Below, one piece after another: positions 4,278-55,060 of a DNA stretch of 64,000 bases. A model generated the notes under the pieces. The model was given only the letters and a program-made list of their open reading frames with translations, was not told the origin of the DNA and did no database searches. Made by a program: the position numbers and the translations under genes. Positions within the stretch are counted from its first letter, which is position 1; every line of letters begins with the position of its first letter. Origin of the DNA: Mycobacteriales bacterium. GTDB lineage: Bacteria; Actinomycetota; Actinomycetes; BP-191. The stretch lies in contig DATLOQ010000045.1 of NCBI GenBank assembly GCA_035536235.1, forward strand, positions 40,882 through 104,881, in the 5' to 3' direction.

Positions 4278-5060
4278 ATGACGGGCTGGCTCGAGCCGAG
4301 CGACAACCTGAAAGTGCTGTGTGAACTTGAGCCGGCAACGCGTCCAGACCTGCGGCACGTCCGGCGGCAGGTGGCCCTGCTTGACGGCGTCACCGACGCC
4401 TATCTGGTGCCCGACAACCACCTGGGGCGAGCGACAGTTTCGAGCATCGCGGTGGCCGGGGAGGTGGCCGCGCTAGGGGGAAGCTCAGTTGCGTGCTTGA
4501 ACAGCAGGGACCGGAACCTTCTCGGCTTCCGGCGGGACCTGCTGACGGCAGCGGCCTACGGCGTGGATTCGTTCCTGTTCGTCCGAGGTGATGAGCCTTC
4601 GGAGGGCACCAGGTCCACGGACCTCACGGTCCGCAGGATGCTGGACGACGCGAGGGAGTTCGCAGGCGCGCCGTTTCGGATCGGCGCCACAGCCCGGGTC
4701 GGGTCACCCATCCCGGCATGGAAGCAGGCCGCCGACTTCCTTCTGGTTCAGATGTCCTTCGACGTTCCGGCCCTGGTGAAGTGGCGACGAAACTTGGAGT
4801 ACAGCGGGCCGGTCTTCGCTGGCGTTCTGGTGCTCGCGAGCACCAAGATGGCTCGCAACATCGCCAGCACGGCCAAGGACGTCAGCATCCCCGAAGGACT
4901 CATCGCCGCGCTGGAAGAGGACCGGGACGCAGGGGTCGACTTCGCTCTGAACATGGTCGAGGAAATTCGGGCGAGCAAGGCGATGGAAGGCGTGCATCTC
5001 GTACCCGTGACGCGCATCGTGCAGGTGGCGGACCGACTGCGCTTACGGCATGAGGCCTGA
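4278..5060 (+). CDS. Methylenetetrahydrofolate reductase-like protein (MetF family, short actinobacterial type)
   Basis: MetF-like TIM-barrel motifs (DAYLVPDNHLGRATVSS, FRIGATA). Start moved to the ATG after the divergent MOSC gene. Confidence 0.55.
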   Translation: MTGWLEPSDNLKVLCELEPATRPDLRHVRRQVALLDGVTDAYLVPDNHLGRATVSSIAVAGEVAALGGSSVACLNSRDRNLLGFRRDLLTAAAYGVDSFLFVRGDEPSEGTRSTDLTVRRMLDDAREFAGAPFRIGATARVGSPIPAWKQAADFLLVQMSFDVPALVKWRRNLEYSGPVFAGVLVLASTKMARNIASTAKDVSIPEGLIAALEEDRDAGVDFALNMVEEIRASKAMEGVHLVPVTRIVQVADRLRLRHEA

Positions 5061-5568
5061 GCCAGTGCTCCGCAGCGCACTGTCATCGGACGCTGCCATG
5101 GTCGCAGACGTGTACCTCCGGTCGTTCCAGGCTGCGATGCCGAGCGTGCAGCGGGCGCACTCGGACGACGAGGTCCGGGGCTGGGTCCGCGACGTCCTGG
5201 TTCCGGCAGGCGTCCTGCTCGCTGCGGTCGACACTCGTGTTGTCGGGCTGATGGCGCTCTCCGACGGCTGGATCGAGCAGCTGTATGTCGACCCTGCGTG
5301 CCAGCGGTGTGGGATCGGCTCACAACTCGTGTCGCTGGCGAAGCGTAGGCAACCGTCCGGCCTGCAGCTGTGGACCTTTCAGGTCAACCGACCAGCGCAG
5401 CAGTTCTACGAGCGGCACGGCTTCGTCGCCGTCGAATGGACTGACGGCTCGGCTAACGAGGAGCGCGAGCCGGACGTTCGCTACTCGTGGCCGGGAGCGC
5501 AGACATCCGCCTCCCCAGCTGCGGATGAGCTCGGCGATCGTCGGACCGGCCCTGCCACCACTGGCTGA
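5050..5568 (+). CDS. GNAT family N-acetyltransferase
   Basis: Acetyl-CoA binding region QRCGIGSQLVSLAKRRQ...FYERHGF. Confidence 0.65.
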   Translation: MRPEPVLRSALSSDAAMVADVYLRSFQAAMPSVQRAHSDDEVRGWVRDVLVPAGVLLAAVDTRVVGLMALSDGWIEQLYVDPACQRCGIGSQLVSLAKRRQPSGLQLWTFQVNRPAQQFYERHGFVAVEWTDGSANEEREPDVRYSWPGAQTSASPAADELGDRRTGPATTG

Positions 5569-8211: not shown

Positions 8212-8300
8212 TGGCGGAGGATGCGAGATTCGAACTCGCGAGGGGTTGCCCCCAACACGCTTTCCAAGCGTGCGCCATAGGCCAACTAGGCGAATCCTCC
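8212..8300 (-). tRNA. tRNA-Ser (anticodon GGA)
   Basis: Reverse-complement reads GGAGGAT..TCGCCTAGTTGGCC..CACGCTTGGAAAGCGTG..long variable arm..GCGAGTTCGAATCTCGC..ATCCTCC G CCA. Confidence 0.85.
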
Positions 8301-9263: not shown

Positions 9264-9367
9264 GCGCCCATCGTCCCCCTCGCCCCGCCGAATCACTCCC
9301 CGTCACGGAGACCCCTGCTGCAGGCGAGCCCGGCCGGGTGTCTGCCGCACCCTCTAGACTGCCCGGC

Positions 9368-9460
9368 AGACCCCTCGCGCGACGCGCATCCTGTGAACCT
9401 CCCCAGGGCCGGAAGGCAGCAAGGATAAGCGGGCTCTGCCGGGTGCGCGGGGGGTCCTTC
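9368..9460 (+). ncRNA. ffs: Signal recognition particle RNA (small/4.5S type, ffs)
   Basis: Domain IV core CCAGGGCCGGAAGGCAGCAAGG matches the universally conserved SRP RNA motif (E. coli CCAGGUCAGGUCCGGAAGGAAGCAGCCAAGG); terminal helix cccctcgcgc / gcgcgggggg; conserved position just upstream of dnaX. Confidence 0.7.
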
Positions 9461-9488
9461 TCGGAGGCGGCTGCGCCTCCACTCCTGC

Positions 9489-11465
9489 TTGGTCGGAGTG
9501 GTCGGAGGACCTGTGGCACTGGCTCTCTACCGGAAGTACCGCTCGTCGACGTTTGCTGAGCTGGTCGGCCAGGAGCACGTCACCGAGCCGCTCATGCAGG
9601 CCCTGCGCAACGACCGGGTGCATCACGCCTACCTCTTCTCCGGCCCCCGCGGCTGTGGAAAGACCTCGAGCGCCCGCATCCTTGCTCGTTCCCTCAACTG
9701 CGAGAAGGGTCCGACGCCGGACCCGTGCGGCACCTGTGATCAGTGCGTGGCGATCGCCGGAGGCACGAGTCTCGACGTCGTAGAGATCGACGCGGCAAGC
9801 CACGGCGGGGTGGACGACGCGCGCGATCTGCGTGAGCGGGCCTTCTTCTCCCCGGTTTCCGCGCGCTACAAGATCTACATCGTCGACGAGGCGCACATGG
9901 TCTCGCGTGAGGGCTTCAACGCGCTGCTCAAGCTGGTCGAGGAGCCCCCGGATCACCTGAAGTTCATCTTCGCGACCACCGAGCCGGACAAGGTCATCGC
10001 GACGATCAAATCGCGCACCCACCACTACCCCTTCAGGCTGATCCCGCCGAAGAAGCTCACCGAGCTGCTGCAAGGCATCTGCGCGGCAGAGCAGGTGCAG
10101 GTAGAGGCGGGTGCCCTCCAGCTCGTCGTCCGGGCCGGGGGTGGTTCGGCCCGAGACGCTTTGAGCGTGCTCGACCAGCTGCTGTCGGGCGCGGGCGGTG
10201 AGGGCGTCACCTACGAGCTCGCCCGCGACCTGCTCGGTGTCACCGACGGGGCACTGATCGACGAGCTGGTGGACGCGGTCGCCGTGCGTGACGGCGCGGC
10301 CGTCTTCGACGTCATCGCGCGGGTCGTCGAGGCTGGCCACGACCCGCGGCGGTTCGCCAGCGACCTCCTGGACCGCTTCAAGGACCTGCTGGTGGTGCAG
10401 CGGGTGGCGGATGCCGTGGAGCGCGGCCTGGTCGACTGCCCACCCGACCTCGGTCCCCGGCTTGCTCAGCAGGCGGGCGCGTACGGCGCGGCGGAGCTCT
10501 CCCGGGCGGCCGACCTGCTCTATGCCGGACTGACCGAGATGCGCGGTACGACCAGCCCGCGGCTCACCCTGGAGCTGGTCTGCGCCCGCATCCTGCTCCC
10601 GGCCGCCGCCGCAGACGAGTCAGCGACGTTGGCCCGCCTTGATCGGTTGGAGCGGCGCCTGTCGATAGCCGGCGACGCCGCCGGTGCGGCGCCGGCACCG
10701 GCTCACGCGCAGCCAGCGGCGCCCCCGCCTCCCACGCCGACCCGGCCCGAGCGCCCGGCGCCGAGTTCCTCCCGCACAGCGGCACCGCCAGCGGGCTCGC
10801 CGACTGCACCCGCCACAGCTCCGCCCGATCGGGCTCAGGCGGTGGCATCGCCCGCGGCGGACGATTCCCCGGCGGCCCCGGCAGCGGTCGCGACGACAGC
10901 GCCCGAGGAGGCACCTGCCGGAGCGGCCGAAGGGGTCGGCGCGCTCGACGCCGCGGGGGTGCGCCGGGTGTGGGAGCAGGTGCGCGAGGCAGTGAAACGA
11001 CGGAGCCGGACCACGCAGGCCCTGCTACTCGACGCGATGGTCACCGAGGTCTCGCGCACGCACGTGACGCTGTGCTTCCCGACCAGCCCGCTGGTGCGGC
11101 AGTTCGAGCGGGCCCCCAATCCGGACAACGTCGCGGCCGCGCTGCGGGAGGTGCTGGGCGTGGAGTGGAAGGTCACGGCGATCTTCAAAGATGACGCCGG
11201 CGACTGCGTCGATGAGAGCCGAGCCGTGGCGAGCTCGACTCGCCAGCCCGCAGCGCACGACGACCCAGCATCGCACCAGCCGGCACAGCCGAGTGCGCGC
11301 GCCGCGGCGCAGGCCACCGAGAGCTTCGCTCCTGGTGACGCACCCGGCGAGGAGTCGCCCGGCGGCGCGCCGCAGGCGCCGGCTCGACGTACAGAGGAAG
11401 ATCCTGCTGTCGCGCTCCTGAGGTCCAACCTCGGCGCGCGGGTGATCAGCCAGAGTGACGACTAG
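9489..11465 (+). CDS. dnaX: DNA polymerase III subunits gamma/tau
   Basis: ALYRKYR, Walker [10 protein letters not shown], Zn-module [16 protein letters not shown], Pro/Ala-rich tau linker. Confidence 0.9.
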
Positions 11466-18184: not shown

Positions 18185-18262
18185 TGGTCGGGATGGGGAG
18201 ATTCGAACTCCCGGCCTCCACGTCCCGAACGTGGCGCGCTAACCAAGCTGCGCTACATCCCG
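18185..18262 (-). tRNA. tRNA-Pro (anticodon CGG)
   Basis: Reverse complement: CGGGATGTAGCGCAGCTTGGTTAGCGCGCCACGTTCGGGACGTGGAGGCCGGGAGTTCGAATCTCCCCATCCCGACCA. Confidence 0.85.
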
Positions 18263-44212: not shown

Positions 44213-44779
44213 TCAGTCGCGCAGCGGGAGCTCCAGCTCCGAGGCGCTGATCGACGCGGTGCCGTCCCGCTCGGCCCGATCGGCGAGGCGCCGCGCGGCC
44301 GCCTGCAGCCGCCGTACGCCGACGCCGAAGTGCGCGTCGGGGTAGGCAGTCAGCTTGTCCGCAGCGCGTCGCAGGATGGTGGCAGCGCCGACCGCGTTGC
44401 CGCGCTGGATGTGGGTGAGGCCGACGGCAAGCTGGGCCAAGCCCTGCCAGAAGTCCCGATCCGGCGGGTCAGCGAGATGCCACGGACCCTCCAACACCTC
44501 GTGGGCATAGAACGGGGCGCCGCCGAGGATCAGCCGCTGGGCTTCCTCGATCGCGTCGTCGGGCGGCAATGAGGTCTCGCGGTCCCCGACGGCGAGGCGT
44601 TCCCGCCACGGCGTGGGAGTGCCGGGTGGCAGCGGCGCGCCGGTGATGTCCCGTGGTCGCTGGCTCAGTGGCCGACCGGCGCTGTCTCGCGAACGCGGGG
44701 TGGGCGACGGAGCGGCGGCGGCATCCCCCGCGTCCGCATCGGTGCCGTCCGGCGGCACCGTCATGACTGCTTGGCCCAT
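44213..44779 (-). CDS. DUF309 domain-containing protein
   Basis: Conserved helical region FYAHEVLEGPWHLADPPDRDFWQGLAQLAVGLTHIQRGN. Confidence 0.5.
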   Translation of the reverse strand: MGQAVMTVPPDGTDADAGDAAAAPSPTPRSRDSAGRPLSQRPRDITGAPLPPGTPTPWRERLAVGDRETSLPPDDAIEEAQRLILGGAPFYAHEVLEGPWHLADPPDRDFWQGLAQLAVGLTHIQRGNAVGAATILRRAADKLTAYPDAHFGVGVRRLQAAARRLADRAERDGTASISASELELPLRD

Positions 44780-45726
44780 CGGACGATCTCTGCCGTCACC
44801 AGGTCGGGTGCCTCCTCAGCGGGGAAGTGCCCGACGCCGTCGAGCAGCCGCCACTCATAGACCCCCTCGACGTAGCGACCGGAGCCGAGCGCCGTGCGCG
44901 GCAGCAGGCACCCGTCCATCGCCCCATGCAGCTGCAGGGTCGGGGCGCCGACCGGCCGCTGCATCCGCTTGGCGAACCGGTAGCCGTCTGGCCGTACGAC
45001 GGACCGCACCGCCCAGCGGTAGTACTCCATGGCGCAGTAGGCGACCGTCGGGATCTGCATGGCGGTGCGGTAGATGCGGTCCGTGGCGGCATCGGGGAAG
45101 CCAGGCCCGCCCCAGTCGTGGAGCAGGCGGGACACTCGCTCGGCGTCATCCTTGACCAGGAGCCGCTCCGCCAGCCACGGCGCCTGGAAGGCCAGCACGT
45201 ACCAGCTGGCCCGGAGCTGGCCGCGCGGGTCGACGACGACTTGGGCTCGGAGGCGCAGCGGGTGCGGCATCGAGAGGATGACCAGCCGCGAGACCACCTC
45301 GGGGTGAAGCGTTGCGACTGCCCAGGCGAGGAGGCCCCCCCAGTCGTGCCCGACGATGACCGCGTCGCGTTCACCCAGCCCGCGGACGAGGCCGGCGACG
45401 TCCGCCGCGAGGGTGTAGATGTCATAGCCCCGCGGCGGCTTGTCGCTCGCGCCGTACCCGCGCAGGTCCGGGGCGACCGCACGAAATCCGTGCTGCGGCA
45501 GGTCGGTCAGCTGGTGCCGCCACTGCCACCACATCTGCGGGAAGCCGTGCAGCATGAGGACGAGCGGGCCGTCACCTGCTTCGGCAACGTGGAAGCGCGC
45601 GCCGTTGGCGGAGACGTCCCGGTGGCGCCATGGGCCGGAGAGCAGGATGTCGCTCTCGGCCGCCATGGCGGCAGCGTCCCACAGCCAGGGCGCGCGGGGC
45701 AGACCGCACTCGTAGCATTCCGGCAT
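44761..45726 (-). CDS. Alpha/beta hydrolase (epoxide hydrolase family, EphE-like)
   Basis: HGFPQMWWQWRHQ...GHDWGG. Confidence 0.8.
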   Translation of the reverse strand: MPECYECGLPRAPWLWDAAAMAAESDILLSGPWRHRDVSANGARFHVAEAGDGPLVLMLHGFPQMWWQWRHQLTDLPQHGFRAVAPDLRGYGASDKPPRGYDIYTLAADVAGLVRGLGERDAVIVGHDWGGLLAWAVATLHPEVVSRLVILSMPHPLRLRAQVVVDPRGQLRASWYVLAFQAPWLAERLLVKDDAERVSRLLHDWGGPGFPDAATDRIYRTAMQIPTVAYCAMEYYRWAVRSVVRPDGYRFAKRMQRPVGAPTLQLHGAMDGCLLPRTALGSGRYVEGVYEWRLLDGVGHFPAEEAPDLVTAEIVRWAKQS

Positions 45727-46132
45727 GGGGATCTTCCGCCGCCGCGCGCTCCCCGCCCACCTGGAGTCGGCGTATGAGGCCTTCCTGCGATGCGCGGAGC
45801 ATGTCGACCTCGGGCAGCGGGCGATGATCCGCTGCGTCCCGTCGTCGGCCCGGGCTGTCGGTCTGCCGCTCGCCGTGGGCGCGCAGACCCTGGCGATGTC
45901 CTTGGACGAAGCGCGGGCAGAGATGCCCCGCTGGCATCATCCCGATGTGGCGGGGATCTGGGCGGACTGCTCGGCGGCACTGGACGAGACGTCCCGGGCG
46001 GTGGGCCGCGCCGTCGAGATCGCGGCTGCGACGAGGGAGCTCGAGGTCGCGCTGACCGCCGTGCAGGACCTCCTCGACCCGCTCCACGCCTTCGTCGACG
46101 CGGAGGCGCGCTTCGCCGAGCTGCGTCGTTGA
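45725..46132 (+). CDS. Hypothetical protein
   Basis: 135-aa helical ORF, convergent with the downstream paralog array. Confidence 0.35.
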   Translation: MGIFRRRALPAHLESAYEAFLRCAEHVDLGQRAMIRCVPSSARAVGLPLAVGAQTLAMSLDEARAEMPRWHHPDVAGIWADCSAALDETSRAVGRAVEIAAATRELEVALTAVQDLLDPLHAFVDAEARFAELRR

Positions 46133-46161
46133 GCGGTCCTCGTTGAGCTGTGCCCGTTGAG

Positions 46162-46701
46162 CTATAGCGCCGAGCACTCGCCGGTGCGGCGCTCAGCCGC
46201 GAAGACGTACTGCCCCCCCTGGTAGGCGAGGCGTACGACGAAGCCGCCCCCGGACACTCGCTCCTTGATGCTGTTGTAGTAGGTGGTCGCCGTGACGGCG
46301 AAGTCCGCCCGTCGGAAGTCGGCGCTCACCGACTGCTCTCGCACCGTGAGGTCGAGCGCGCCCGCACACAGCTGCTGCGCGACGTCGCGCAGGGCGGCCT
46401 GGACGCCGAGCTGGCTGGGCATGGAGACGACCCGCCCCGCGTCGCCGCGGACCGAGTCACGGAGGTTGTCGCCCGCGGCGACGTCGTCGTACGCCGGTCG
46501 GGACCCGTAGACCCGCACGGCGCCCGTCGCCGGAGCGAGACCTGCCGCGGTGCCCGCAGGGGCTGACCGGACGGCCGTCCCACCGGCGAGGAGGAGCACA
46601 GCCACCGCACTCGCGAGCCCGTCGATGACCCGGGAGCGCCGAAGGGACCAGGGCAGCTGCCGCCGCGTTTCGTCAGTCCCCCGAGCGATCACCTCAGCCA
46701 A
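46162..46701 (-). CDS. Paralog 1 of a tandem triplet of single-pass membrane proteins (unknown function)
   Basis: N-terminal RRQLPWSLRR motif, one TM helix, C-terminal FVVRLAYQGGQYV...GEC. Confidence 0.45.
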   Translation of the reverse strand: MAEVIARGTDETRRQLPWSLRRSRVIDGLASAVAVLLLAGGTAVRSAPAGTAAGLAPATGAVRVYGSRPAYDDVAAGDNLRDSVRGDAGRVVSMPSQLGVQAALRDVAQQLCAGALDLTVREQSVSADFRRADFAVTATTYYNSIKERVSGGGFVVRLAYQGGQYVFAAERRTGECSAL

Positions 46702-47188
46702 GACAGGGCTCCGACGACTCCTGGACCGAGTAGCTGATCCCGGTCCCGCGGGGCAGCCGGGACACTTTCAAGCGGAGTGCTGGAGCCCGGCCAGGGAGGC
46801 CAGCGGCGACCGTGGCGATGCTCACATCTCGGTTGTGCTCTGCCACGGAGTAGGTGAACCCTGCGGTCTCGGTGCAGATGAGCCCAGCAGCGAACCGGGC
46901 GACGTTCTGCGCCGTGCGTAGCCGGGCCTGCTCTTCGGCCGAGCTGATCTGCGGCAGCGGAGATGGGGACGGCGAGGGCGAGGTGGTCGCTGGCTGGCTG
47001 GCCGGCAGGTTCGGCGCGCTGCGCCGGTCAGTGACAACGGCGGAGGCGACCAGCAGGTGCACCGCGAGCGTCGCGCCGATAGCTGACCCCAGCGTGTCGA
47101 GCGGCAACGATCGTCGCGCCCGCTCGCTCCCTGCAAGCAGGAGGTCCGGAGCAGGCTTAGCCACTTTCACACCCGCCGTACGCCTCAC
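46694..47188 (-). CDS. Paralog 2 of the tandem triplet (more diverged)
   Basis: RRSLPL motif, TM helix, C-terminal LRLKVSRLP...EPC; overlaps neighbours by 8 and 32 nt. Confidence 0.4.
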   Translation of the reverse strand: MRRTAGVKVAKPAPDLLLAGSERARRSLPLDTLGSAIGATLAVHLLVASAVVTDRRSAPNLPASQPATTSPSPSPSPLPQISSAEEQARLRTAQNVARFAAGLICTETAGFTYSVAEHNRDVSIATVAAGLPGRAPALRLKVSRLPRGTGISYSVQESSEPCLG

Positions 47189-47717
47189 TGATCTGGCCGA
47201 CGTACTCGCCTTCTCGCCATGACAACCGGAGCACGAAGCCGGCGGACTTGCGGGGCGTGTCGCTGGCGCGGCCGACCAGGAACGTGGCTGTCCGGCCCTC
47301 CTCCGCTGCGCTGGCAGAGTCGGCAGCGGCGTCGACTCGGCGGTAGCGGGGACGCTCGATATTGCGGCACTGCCTGACCGCGACGAGCTCGGCCGCGCGC
47401 CGCGCTGTACGCCCGCTCGGACGCACGACGGGCGCCACGACGACGGCGCCGGTTGAGCTGATGCTCACGGCTGCGCGCATCGGCTCCTGGTGTTCTGAGG
47501 ACCGACCGGCGGGGCCCGCGAGCGTGGCGGAGCCGGATGAGGCCCGCTGAGCTGCTGCCGTGCCCGCGGCGACCAGAACGCCGACCACCCCTATTGCCAG
47601 CGCCGTCGTCAAGCGGTCGCGGCGCAGCGTCCACGGCAGTCGCCGGCCGGCCCGCGGCGCGCGCTCTGCGGGCCCCCAGGACAGCACCTCTCGCGATCCG
47701 CTCGACTCTCCTGGCAT
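47157..47717 (-). CDS. Paralog 3 of the tandem triplet
   Basis: RRLPWTLRR motif, TM helix, C-terminal FVLRLSWREGEYV...GGC; starts 6 nt after the acs stop. Confidence 0.45.
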   Translation of the reverse strand: MPGESSGSREVLSWGPAERAPRAGRRLPWTLRRDRLTTALAIGVVGVLVAAGTAAAQRASSGSATLAGPAGRSSEHQEPMRAAVSISSTGAVVVAPVVRPSGRTARRAAELVAVRQCRNIERPRYRRVDAAADSASAAEEGRTATFLVGRASDTPRKSAGFVLRLSWREGEYVGQISEAYGGCESG

Positions 47718-47722
47718 GGCGG

Positions 47723-49678
<1,956 letters not shown>

Positions 49679-49756
49679 GGCGGCTCCTCGCAGCGGCGGC
49701 GTCCTACTCTCGCTGATGCCGCCACGCGATGCCAGGCGCGGTAGGGGCGCCGAGCG

Positions 49757-50254
49757 TCAGCTGCCGACGACGTACGCCGCGTCGGTGGCAGCGGTGTCGC
49801 CGCCGGGGGCGCCGGCAAGCGCACCGCCGGGCGTGCTGCTCACGGCGATGTCGCTCAGCTCGGTCCCGGGCTTGAGCGCGCCCTTCGCCGGCATCGTGAA
49901 GACGATCTTGTTGCCGCTGATCTTCACTGCCGGCGGACTCGCATTCGATCCGGTGCACCCTCCGCTGCTGCTGCCGTCCACGCCGAAGACGTTGCCCCGC
50001 CAGGTGCAGTTGTCGTCGGTGCTGAAACGCAGCTGGTAGGCGAACGGCACCGGCGTATTCGGTGGCCCGGCGAACTCCACCGTGACCACGAGCTTCGTCT
50101 TCTTCTCGGTGACGAACAGGGCGGAGACGATGTCGGCACCGGCTACCGGGTAGTCACCCCTCGGATCGGTGAGCTGCGGCTTCGGCGCCGCGCCGGCGTG
50201 CGGCGCTGCGAGGGCGATCACTGCGATCGCGGCAGCGAGAACGGTACGTCGCAT
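49757..50254 (-). CDS. Secreted protein, paralog A (unknown family)
   Basis: Signal peptide; conserved DPRGDYPVAGADIVS and paired Cys. Confidence 0.5.
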   Translation of the reverse strand: MRRTVLAAAIAVIALAAPHAGAAPKPQLTDPRGDYPVAGADIVSALFVTEKKTKLVVTVEFAGPPNTPVPFAYQLRFSTDDNCTWRGNVFGVDGSSSGGCTGSNASPPAVKISGNKIVFTMPAKGALKPGTELSDIAVSSTPGGALAGAPGGDTAATDAAYVVGS

Positions 50255-50293
50255 GGATGCTCCCCCGTCGAAGCTGAAGTTGCCGGTGGGAAT

Positions 50294-50331
50294 TCGACAG
50301 CTCCCGGGCGGATTCCTGCCCGGGAGCTGTC
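50294..50331. terminator. Strong hairpin between the tandem secreted-protein paralogs
   Basis: tcgacagctcccgggc - ggattcct - gcccgggagctgtcg (15-bp stem). Confidence 0.5.
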
Positions 50332-50354
50332 GTCGAATGCCGGTGGGTGTGCGG

Positions 50355-50864
50355 TTACTTGACCACGTAGGTCGCGTCGCCCGTCGCGGTGTCACCGGCA
50401 GCGCCGGGCCCGGAGCCGGAGAGCACGCCGCCGGGGGCGGAGTAGATCGCGAAGGCGGTGATCTTGGTGCCCAGCTTGAACGCACCCTTGGTCGGCACCG
50501 AGAACGTCAAGGTGTTGCCGTTGATCTTGACGCCGGAGGGGGCTGAGGAGTTGTCGCCGCGGCAGCCGCCGGACACCTCGTCGTTGGCGCCGAAGTAGTT
50601 GACCCGCCAGTCGCAGCTGCCCGCCATGAAGTTGATCTGGTAGGCGTAGGGAATGGGGGTGGCCGGGCTCGCCGGGCCGGCCAGCTCGAGGGCGATGACC
50701 AGCGTCTTCTTCTTCACGGTGCTGAGCGTGAGGGACACGATGTCGGCGCCAGCCACCGGGTAGTCGCCCTTGGGGTCGGTGACCTGCGGCGTCGGCGCTG
50801 CACTGGCGTGGGAGGCGAACAGGGCTCCGGAGAGTAGTACGGCGGTGAGGGCGACGCGGCGCAT
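50355..50864 (-). CDS. Secreted protein, paralog B
   Basis: Signal peptide; DPKGDYPVAGADIVS; same Cys pattern as paralog A. Start coordinate may be off by 1 nt. Confidence 0.5.
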   Translation of the reverse strand: MRRVALTAVLLSGALFASHASAAPTPQVTDPKGDYPVAGADIVSLTLSTVKKKTLVIALELAGPASPATPIPYAYQINFMAGSCDWRVNYFGANDEVSGGCRGDNSSAPSGVKINGNTLTFSVPTKGAFKLGTKITAFAIYSAPGGVLSGSGPGAAGDTATGDATYVVK

Positions 50865-51031
50865 GGCAATGTCCTTCGGGGGTTGGGGGTGCTGCGGGGG
50901 TCTTGCGGTGGTAACGACGACCTTCGTCTCCGGTGACGGCACTCCTGCCCCCCGCAAGGAAGAGTGCCGCGCATCAGTAGGCTCTCCGTTCGTGGCCGAA
51001 GGCGATCCGCTCGTCCCGCTGATGCACCTGC

Positions 51032-51747
51032 CGGACGTGGCGGAGCGGGTGCTCGCGGCGCGCGGCGGGGTCGACCGACTGCTCGGGGAGCGGGTGCTGC
51101 GCCGCCGCAGTGCAGAAGTGTCCGCGGAAGCGGGGCTGCGATCGGTGCGGGCCAGCGCCGCGCTCGAAGGAGTGGTCGTCAGCCTCGACGACCTGCGTCG
51201 CGGAGCAGACATTGACGCCCCGGCCGTCCAAGGCGCGCTCCGCGTCGGTCAGGAGATGAGCTCGCTAGGTCCCGTGCTCGACCGGGCCCCCATGCAGGCG
51301 TTGGCCCGGCTGCACGCGCTCGCCGCAGCGGACGCGGTACCCCGCTCCGAGCTCGGCCGGCCCCGAGAGCTCGGCCTGCCGCCTGCGCACGTGGTAGCTC
51401 GCCGACTAGCCACGCTCAGCGAGATCCTGGCAGCACCCACGTCGGTGTCGGCGGTAGTGGTCGCCGCCGTCGTGCATGGTGAAGTTCTTGCGCTGCAGCC
51501 CTTCTCCTGGGGCAATGGCCTGGTTGCGCGCGCTGCCGCCCGGATCGTGCTGGTGCATCGCGGAGTCGACCCCAAGGCGCTCACCGCGCCGGACGTCGGT
51601 CATGCCGTTGACCCCACGGCGTACGCCGATGCGGCCGCGCGCTTCGCTGCGGGAGACGTGCGTCCGTGGCTGCTCCACTGCGCCGACGCCTTGCTCGCCG
51701 GAGCGCAGGAAGGACAGGCGATCTGCTCGGCCCTGGAGCGCGGCTAG
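51032..51747 (+). CDS. Hypothetical protein
   Basis: Helical 238-aa ORF; the upstream part of the long ORF is antisense to paralog B. Confidence 0.4.
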
Positions 51748-54944: not shown

Positions 54945-55060
54945 CGTTCTGACGCCATCCCCCCCCGGCGTCAGGCGCGTCTGGCTCACCCCCCGGAGCC
55001 AGACACCGGACGACCCCCGCCACCCCCCCCGGCGGGGGTCGTCCCATGTCCGGGGTCAGG
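54945..55060 (+). ncRNA. 6C small RNA (actinobacterial; B11-like)
   Basis: Three consecutive hairpins, each with a poly-C loop: ctgacgcc[atcccccccc]ggcgtcag; tctggctc[accccccg]gagccaga; ggacgacccccgcc[acccccccc]ggcgggggtcgtcc. Lies immediately upstream of the cpaE-like gene. Confidence 0.65.

Follow-up and report, generated by a model that had tools for sequence, protein, structure and literature searches.

An undescribed family of predicted single-pass membrane proteins encoded in tandem after acs in uncultured actinobacteria

Three genes, which we call a, b and c, lie in tandem directly after the acetyl-CoA synthetase gene acs on the minus strand of a 64,000-nucleotide stretch of DNA (the window; contig DATLOQ010000045.1). 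The stretch comes from a metagenome-assembled genome (MAG) filed as "Mycobacteriales bacterium", and its G+C (GC) content is 72%. The window proteins P1, P2 and P3, encoded by a, b and c, are hypothetical proteins at NCBI. They are members of an undescribed sequence family with a known kind of architecture, and this family fits none of the known families with which we compared it. Each protein is predicted to have a short cytoplasmic tail, one transmembrane (TM) helix and a small extracytoplasmic domain (ectodomain). A preliminary description, made from the letters of the window, had listed three consecutive minus-strand genes of 164 to 186 amino acids (aa) after acs, and our listing of open reading frames (ORFs) agrees (Table 1).

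Coding status, paralogy and junctions

In high-GC DNA, long chance ORFs occur in every frame, and one reading of a, b and c is that they are spurious or decaying ORFs without function. The GC content at third codon positions (GC3) peaks in the named frames, at 0.81 for a, 0.79 for b and 0.88 for c, with 0.91 for acs. In favor of chance ORFs, the values of a and b lie below the 0.89 to 0.91 of the neighbours, and various copies have been lost in several lineages. However, the reading frames are intact at about 13 related metagenomic loci, at 35 to 68% identity. Word-indexed searches of related contigs returned orthologs of each gene at 59 to 68% identity and in identical gene order. The orthologs of a are P0005, P0006, P0007, P0008, P0010, P0011 and P0019; the database entry P0009 reads as an acs C terminus fused to an a-type sequence.

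Codon alignments gave ratios of nonsynonymous to synonymous substitution rates (dN/dS, Nei-Gojobori) of 0.19 to 0.33 for the closer pairs of a, b and c, versus 0.04 to 0.16 for acs and the ephE-like genes of the same contigs. Therefore, a, b and c are real genes under purifying selection that evolve several times faster than their neighbours. Distant pairs reach 0.5 to 0.75, but their dS is at least 0.9, near saturation. The preliminary description had raised the question of whether these ORFs are conserved as coding in related genomes. They are: none of the called a, b or c genes is frameshifted, and the closer-pair ratios are far under 1. The conserved start and stop junctions, the invariant cysteine pair and the confidently predicted domain described below also argue against spurious ORFs. 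We give that reading almost no weight; the dN/dS values and the 22-sequence alignment effectively refute it.

Sequence comparison identifies a, b and c as paralogs, as had been proposed. In a BLAST search of a three-protein database, a and c were 28% identical over 167 aa (E = 5e-12). Subfamilies a and c align over their full length, with RRxR, P, C, GF, G-Y and G-C as common columns. Subfamily b could be connected to a and c through profile-profile comparison alone (hhalign probability 93.3%, E = 2.7e-7, 148 columns), in which both cysteines align. Across the 22 members from all three subfamilies (alignment A6), these two cysteines, C112 and C176 of c, are the sole invariant columns. Identity between subfamilies is otherwise 12 to 30%. 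The N-terminal motif [DE][LV][LIV]xxG occurs in all three subfamilies and in 19 of 20 N-terminally complete members, the exception being the b protein of locus L005, which has S for G. This motif is the only cytoplasmic feature conserved in all three.

Two longer motifs had been read from the window proteins, and they describe P1 and P3 better than the whole triplet. The N-terminal motif, given as RR(x)LP(W/L)xLRR, is RRxLPWxLRR in P1 and P3, whereas P2 has only RRSLPL. The C-terminal F(V/L)(V/L)RL..YV..GxC tail is likewise present in P1 and P3, but P2 retains only the strand pattern and the terminal Cys.

The junctions of the array are tight. The array starts directly after acs, as described earlier, with a gap of 5 nucleotides (nt) to gene a. 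The last codons of acs contain a Shine-Dalgarno sequence, GACGAGGAG, just 5' of the ATG of a (acs/a junction, gacgaggagTAGccgccATG). The longest ORF of b (46694-47188, minus strand, 164 aa) opens with a GTG at 47188. However, the true start is likely the GTG at 47170, because the b orthologs begin at the position of V7. With this start, a and b overlap by 14 nt. Of the overlaps of 8 to 32 nt reported before, the 32 nt holds only for the longest b ORF, and the 8 nt stands for b and c, where the TTG start of c lies over the stop of b (TTGGCTGA).

These arrangements recur in the seven loci measured. Wherever a is present, the gap from acs to the first gene is 1 to 6 nt, with a GAGGA-type Shine-Dalgarno sequence within the final acs codons. 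The internal junctions are overlaps of 8 to 23 nt, and the junction from b to c is in all cases of the 8-nt NTGGCTGA/NTGCCTGA type. A scan of positions 45500-50200 found nothing promoter-like or terminator-like. Because the junctions are tight and conserved and no such site intervenes, co-transcription and translational coupling of a, b and c with acs are strongly implied, which is what the preliminary description had concluded from the window. An Rfam scan of the array region gave no match, and the fold of the array 3' end showed no special hairpin (z-score, 0.07).

Predicted topology and ectodomain fold

Each protein has one hydrophobic segment, with a Kyte-Doolittle 19-residue mean of 1.5 to 2.4, and in most members the part N-terminal of this segment has a net positive charge. 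Hydropathy and charge agree with the single TM helix and basic N terminus noted before, and the predicted topology is N-in, C-out. The linker between the TM helix and the ectodomain is rich in Pro, Ala and Ser.

An alternative that concerns the topology alone is that the proteins are secreted rather than anchored. A cleavable Sec or twin-arginine translocation (Tat) signal peptide would then free the disulfide-bonded domains into the wall or the medium. The RR pair before the hydrophobic segment in many a and c members would fit this, as would the small-residue motifs after it (AAA-Q in a and VRS-A in c). However, the RR pair is not conserved: RS, RP, RL and RF are found in a members, and several b members have no such pair. 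The n-region, unusually long at 20 to 37 aa, carries the motif common to all subfamilies and therefore points to a functional cytoplasmic tail that is not cleaved off. In addition, the hydrophobic stretch has the length of a TM segment, with a predicted helix of 18 to 29 residues. We therefore regard secretion as improbable.

Three narrower assignments were rejected. A Tat signal is not indicated, as the residues after RR do not fit the Tat consensus and an invariant S/T-R-R-x-F-L-K directly before the h-region is missing; several a members have another pair in place of RR, and most b members lack it. In a type IV or Tad pseudopilin the motif Gly would stand at the edge of the TM helix, but here 10 to 20 charged residues separate the two, and there is no conserved Glu near the hydrophobic start. 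An anti-sigma factor is not indicated either, as the cytoplasmic part measures only about 25 aa and there is no neighbouring sigma gene.

An AlphaFold2 model of c was built on a seven-sequence alignment of a and c members. It has a TM helix at residues 18 to 46, disorder at residues 45 to 80 and a C-terminal domain with a predicted local distance difference test score (pLDDT) of 79 to 95, except for one 10-residue block at 60. The domain consists of a strand, a helix (residues 97 to 111) and four antiparallel strands, in that order. The model of b, for which an alignment of a and c sequences was used, has a TM helix at residues 27 to 44, a helix at residues 78 to 98 and four strands, with a pLDDT of 70 to 85. 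The invariant cysteines lie just past the helix and just past the last strand. Their positions in an exported domain suggest that the pair probably forms an intramolecular disulfide.

The model ectodomains resemble natural cystatins and NTF2-like proteins, and that of b also resembles the PepSY proteins YpmB and YpeB and the colicin M immunity protein. Foldseek against the PDB gave no match at E ≤ 0.01, and a PDB sequence search with the a/c family profile (A4) gave nothing. The ectodomain, about 80 to 95 aa long, is predicted to be a minimal cystatin/NTF2-like α+β roll, apparently without a close structural relative because both of these searches came back empty.

No known family was recovered with sequence models. 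Pfam and NCBIfam searches with the three proteins and all 22 members gave no match above noise. Sub-threshold matches were scattered (DUF3040, DUF6481, RskA_C, and CU044_5270 in 4 members with a best E of 0.059), and none recurs meaningfully. The PADLOC and PHROG models, of anti-phage defence and phage proteins, did not match a, b or c. A literature search on Rv3669 or on membrane genes downstream of acs found nothing relevant. The earlier statement that the family is not recognisable is thus borne out across Pfam, NCBIfam, PADLOC, PHROG, the PDB sequence search and Foldseek.

Several known systems share parts of the architecture. VirB8-like proteins (VirB8, TraE, DotI/TraM, PrgL and TcpC) have the same bitopic topology that is predicted for a, b and c. 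However, their NTF2-like domain is about 140 aa with several N-terminal helices, whereas the ectodomain here is shorter and has a single helix. The two groups share no sequence or Pfam match, the Cys pair is specific to a, b and c, and the contexts read around the array contain no type IV secretion or conjugation genes. The cystatins, including the designed minimal cystatin fold 4r80, have the fold that the models predict for the ectodomain. Membership among the cystatin inhibitors was rejected, as the QxVxG hairpin, the PW loop and the N-terminal Gly are not conserved in alignment A6 and no Pfam cystatin model matched. Structural scores were weak for the colicin M immunity protein (Cmi) as well as for YpmB and YpeB of the PepSY group. 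Membership in PepSY was rejected because PF03413 did not match, and no cognate toxin or hydrolase gene is linked to the array. The Mce-associated proteins (Mam/Omam) share several features: like a, b and c, they are actinobacterial, bitopic tandem paralogs with an NTF2-like ectodomain, encoded at an operon 3' end. However, their genes follow mce operons, whereas a, b and c follow acs. The contexts read contain no mce genes, and searches of the 22 members against NCBIfam and Pfam models gave no match.

Distribution, turnover and proposed role

We searched 1.84 billion representatives, standing for about 15 billion proteins, exhaustively with the a+c profile (hmmsearch). The search returned 13 proteins at E ≤ 1e-3, among them 11 credible family clusters (at 50% identity). 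The other two, of 1297 and 7629 aa, match only through multiple short stretches and are not members. No protein outside the clade in which the array occurs matches the family in this search, mycobacterial proteins included. A metagenome scan with the a subfamily added only two loci, of identical context. The host organisms are uncultured desert or soil actinobacterial MAGs. Every context read, which covers most of the clusters, lies at one place. The gene order in the clade is acs, the array, a convergent gene of 135 to 145 aa, an ephE-like α/β hydrolase gene, DUF309 and marP (opposite strand), with a polysaccharide deacetylase and a HAD hydrolase gene as further neighbours.

The order within the array is always a, b, c, and its content changes from locus to locus. 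All three genes are present in the window, L001, L005 and L094; a and b in L086, L090 and L096; b and c in L002/L003 and L093; and a alone in L088. L092, whose contig begins just upstream, has a divergent a-like copy, and in L098 a is accompanied by a b::c chimera. Of gene a, L002/L003 keep only an in-frame remnant of 18 codons (MSRE joined to YVGRVSEAYGGCARG and a stop) that still bridges acs and b. This remnant (L002 5482-5531, also in L003; MSREYVGRVSEAYGGCARG and a stop) consists of four codons from the beginning of a and fifteen from its end. Because it joins both ends of a between acs and b, we conclude that this lineage lost a through an internal deletion. The L098 chimera (4449-5072) has a b-type N terminus and TM helix (SVVAAAVALHLIGAVAVVEDR) and a c-type linker and ectodomain (YGARPNLDLP...VPVKERPEHGS...GVC), and it evidently arose by deletion or recombination between adjacent paralogs. 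Some arrays have only one or two members, and this makes an obligate a-b-c heterotrimer unlikely. The variation suggests partly redundant modules.

The ectodomains differ in charge. The net charge is +5 to +9 in a (isoelectric point [pI] 10 to 11), +1 to +5 in c and -6 to +3 in b; the window gene a ectodomain has a net charge of +5 and a pI of 10.0. These values are compatible with anionic partners or with a-b pairing.

We tentatively propose, with a confidence a little short of even, that a, b and c are non-enzymatic binding or scaffold modules of the cell envelope. A non-enzymatic role is suggested because no polar residue is conserved across the subfamilies, only the Cys pair. The proteins would be translated from the acs transcript through coupling, by way of the Shine-Dalgarno sequence in the acs 3' end and the overlapping stop and start codons, and their level would therefore track acs expression. 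Each would be a type II bitopic membrane protein. A cytoplasmic tail of about 20 to 35 aa, with the [DE][LV][LIV]xxG motif and a basic cluster, would lead into one TM helix and a flexible Pro/Ala/Ser-rich tether. The outermost part would be the small α+β domain of minimal cystatin/NTF2-like fold, in which one disulfide would lock the end of the helix to the C-terminal tail. The proteins would bind or scaffold between membrane and wall, probably as homo- or hetero-oligomers, and the partner may be a protein or an anionic envelope polymer. VirB8-like assembly factors, PepSY membrane proteins and the colicin M immunity protein, likewise bitopic and with domains of the cystatin/NTF2-like kind, would be the models for such a role.

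Three points weigh against this proposal. In some members, Sec-dependent cleavage of the hydrophobic segment as a signal peptide may release the domain, as AAA-Q in a would allow. The content of the array varies, and each copy is dispensable in some lineage. Finally, the b model is not independent evidence for a common fold, since it drew on a and c sequences.

A second possibility, which we consider unlikely, is that the proteins are membrane-tethered inhibitors or immunity-type proteins whose cystatin-like ectodomains would bind a hydrolase or toxin outside the cytoplasm and so neutralise it. Candidate targets would include a foreign bacteriocin and the cell's own exported proteases or cell-wall hydrolases, among them the MarP-type serine protease encoded nearby. 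Parallels are known from the cystatins, latexin, the PepSY/FTP propeptides and the colicin M immunity protein, and the fold class, the fast evolution and the copy turnover are what such a role would lead one to expect. However, the proteins have no inhibitory motifs, and no target gene is linked to the array.

A function tied to acs is less probable still. In this scenario, the N-terminal motif would recruit or regulate Acs at the membrane, or the proteins would sense acetate or short-chain acids or help to take them up, by analogy with the membrane partners of acs in the E. coli acs-yjcH-actP operon. Wherever upstream sequence is available, the array lies within 1 to 6 nt of the acs stop or the junction is kept by the 18-codon remnant, and the sole cytoplasmic feature common to all subfamilies is the [DE][LV][LIV]xxG motif. 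However, the bulk of each protein is predicted to be outside the cell, and the family is missing from nearly all acs-bearing actinomycetes, including close relatives whose acs is 67 to 75% identical. Position alone is weak evidence, as the 3' ends of well-expressed operons commonly receive new genes. No member matched DUF485/YjcH or any transporter family in Pfam, and partners of the acs-yjcH-actP type were rejected because neither DUF485 nor the solute:sodium symporter family matched.

The most speculative version joins this scenario to the origin of the family, and we hold it to be the least probable of the functional readings. The family would have arisen locally at the acs 3' end, either de novo or by divergence past recognition, and would have become a membrane partner of acetate metabolism. 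The [DE][LV][LIV]xxG motif would dock Acs or an Acs regulator at the membrane. The disulfide-locked ectodomains would detect or bind a ligand outside the cell, and acetyl-CoA synthesis would in this way be tied to the condition of the envelope.

The acs-ephE interval and the history of the family

Table 1. Coordinates of the array, its parts and neighbouring genes (window positions unless a locus is named; aa numbers of b count from the start at 47170)
Feature	Coordinates	Strand	Basis or remark
acs (acetyl-CoA synthetase, 651 aa)	47723-49678	-	ORF; ACAS_N/AMP-binding/AMP-binding_C Pfam matches on orthologs
Gene a (P1, 186 aa, ATG start), subfamily a	47157-47717	-	ORF and orthologs
Gene b (P2, 158 aa from the ortholog-supported GTG at 47170), subfamily b	46694-47170	-	most divergent paralog
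Gene c (P3, 179 aa, TTG start), subfamily c	46162-46701	-	ORF
Motif [DE][LV][LIV]xxG in a, EVLSWG	47673-47690	-	alignment A6
Motif [DE][LV][LIV]xxG in b, DLLLAG	47129-47146	-	alignment A6
Motif [DE][LV][LIV]xxG in c, EVIARG	46678-46695	-	alignment A6
Predicted TM helix of a, aa 38-56, TALAIGVVGVLVAAGTAAA	47550-47606	-	Kyte-Doolittle mean 2.05; 8 K+R on N-terminal side
Predicted TM helix of b, aa 28-46	47033-47089	-	hydropathy; model helix 27-44
Predicted TM helix of c, aa 25-43	46573-46629	-	hydropathy; model helix 18-46
Predicted ectodomain of a, about aa 95-183, with Cys117 and Cys183	47169-47435	-	alignments
Predicted ectodomain of b, aa 78-156, with Cys99 and Cys156	46703-46939	-	alignments, model
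Predicted ectodomain of c, aa 80-176, topology β-α-β4	46174-46464	-	model, alignment
Invariant Cys112 of c	46366-46368	-	
Invariant Cys176 of c	46174-46176	-	
135-aa gene, convergent on the array	45725-46132	+	ORF, GC3 0.89, conserved alignment in clade
Holin-X (PF07332) gene directly upstream of ephE-like hydrolase, L007	6525-6977		E 6e-23 to 6e-34 for the three loci
Holin-X (PF07332) gene, L017	894-1334		as above
Holin-X (PF07332) gene, L018	6420-6908		as above

The convergent gene of 135 to 145 aa is no paralog of a, b or c. It has the conserved motifs QRAMIRCVPSS and RELEVALTAVQDLLDPLHAFVDAE and no predicted TM segment, and it matched no Pfam, PADLOC or PHROG model. All loci that were read past the array contain it, tblastn found it in clade loci only, and it may belong to the same clade-specific insert as the array.

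In a scan of GTDB species genomes anchored on the adjacent hydrolase, the acs...ephE-DUF309-marP synteny proved widespread, in other Mycobacteriales MAGs, Streptosporangiaceae, Streptomyces, Pseudonocardia and Kineosporiaceae; in Frankia, the ephE-marP part is present. These syntenic loci outside the clade contain no relatives of a, b or c, the single match (an ORF of L011) being at noise (E = 0.012), and by tblastn they also lack the 135-aa gene. In the ten gaps read, the gene before ephE encodes a two-TM membrane protein of one sequence type, and the three such proteins that were scanned all matched Holin-X (Table 1). In L018 and L021 the stop of the gene before the hydrolase overlaps the hydrolase start by 4 nt.

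In M. tuberculosis we take the order to be acs (Rv3667), Rv3668c, Rv3669, ephE (Rv3670) and marP (Rv3671c), and we assume that Rv3669 is probably the Holin-X gene. The array does not match what follows acs in other actinomycetes, as had been remarked for M. tuberculosis. The exhaustive search brought up no mycobacterial match, and the family is absent from the syntenic loci outside the clade. Holin-X proteins are, like a, b and c, small membrane proteins of the acs-ephE interval, but they are of a different sequence type and family. In addition, the array attaches to the acs side of the interval, whereas Holin-X attaches to the ephE side. Homology between the two was rejected, as there is no similarity and no PF07332 match. 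In the clade loci, gene calling gave no Holin-X gene between acs and ephE.

Other features of the window were recorded alongside. The longest ORF of the ephE-like hydrolase (321 aa, 44761-45726, minus strand) has an N-terminal extension (MPECYECGLPRAPWLWDAAAM...) that ends beside the start of the 135-aa gene at 45725. Several orthologs, in L086, L088 and L090, are called at 300 to 301 aa with a separate ORF of 56 to 60 aa upstream, and the true start of the window hydrolase is therefore uncertain. Directly upstream of acs, on the same strand, are two tandem paralogous genes for signal-peptide proteins (49757-50485 and 50355-51212, minus strand). The mature N terminus of their products is AP(K/T)PQ(L/V)TDP(R/K)GDYPVAGADIVS, the true length is likely about 165 aa, and there is no Pfam match; L001 and L086 have one gene of about 165 aa at this place, on the same strand as acs. 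Farther away, Rfam placed a 6C RNA (54974-55047, plus strand, 59.4 bits) and a bacterial small signal recognition particle RNA (9366-9462, plus strand, 62.9 bits) above the gathering score. ARAGORN called four tRNAs (141-230, 8212-8300, 10631-10704 and 18185-18262), of which the Rfam tRNA model reached the gathering score for two only.

Small, lineage-specific tandem envelope proteins are common in actinobacteria, the fold is generic and the uncultured hosts limit follow-up; the family opens no long-standing question. Its history is legible at one locus, where tandem duplication into three subfamilies, the remnant deletion, the b::c chimera and repeated copy loss can be followed. If our description holds, this would be an undescribed, taxonomically restricted family and a case study in how small envelope proteins arise and turn over at the 3' end of a housekeeping operon. 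The bitopic proteins with cystatin/NTF2-like domains would also gain a new sequence family.

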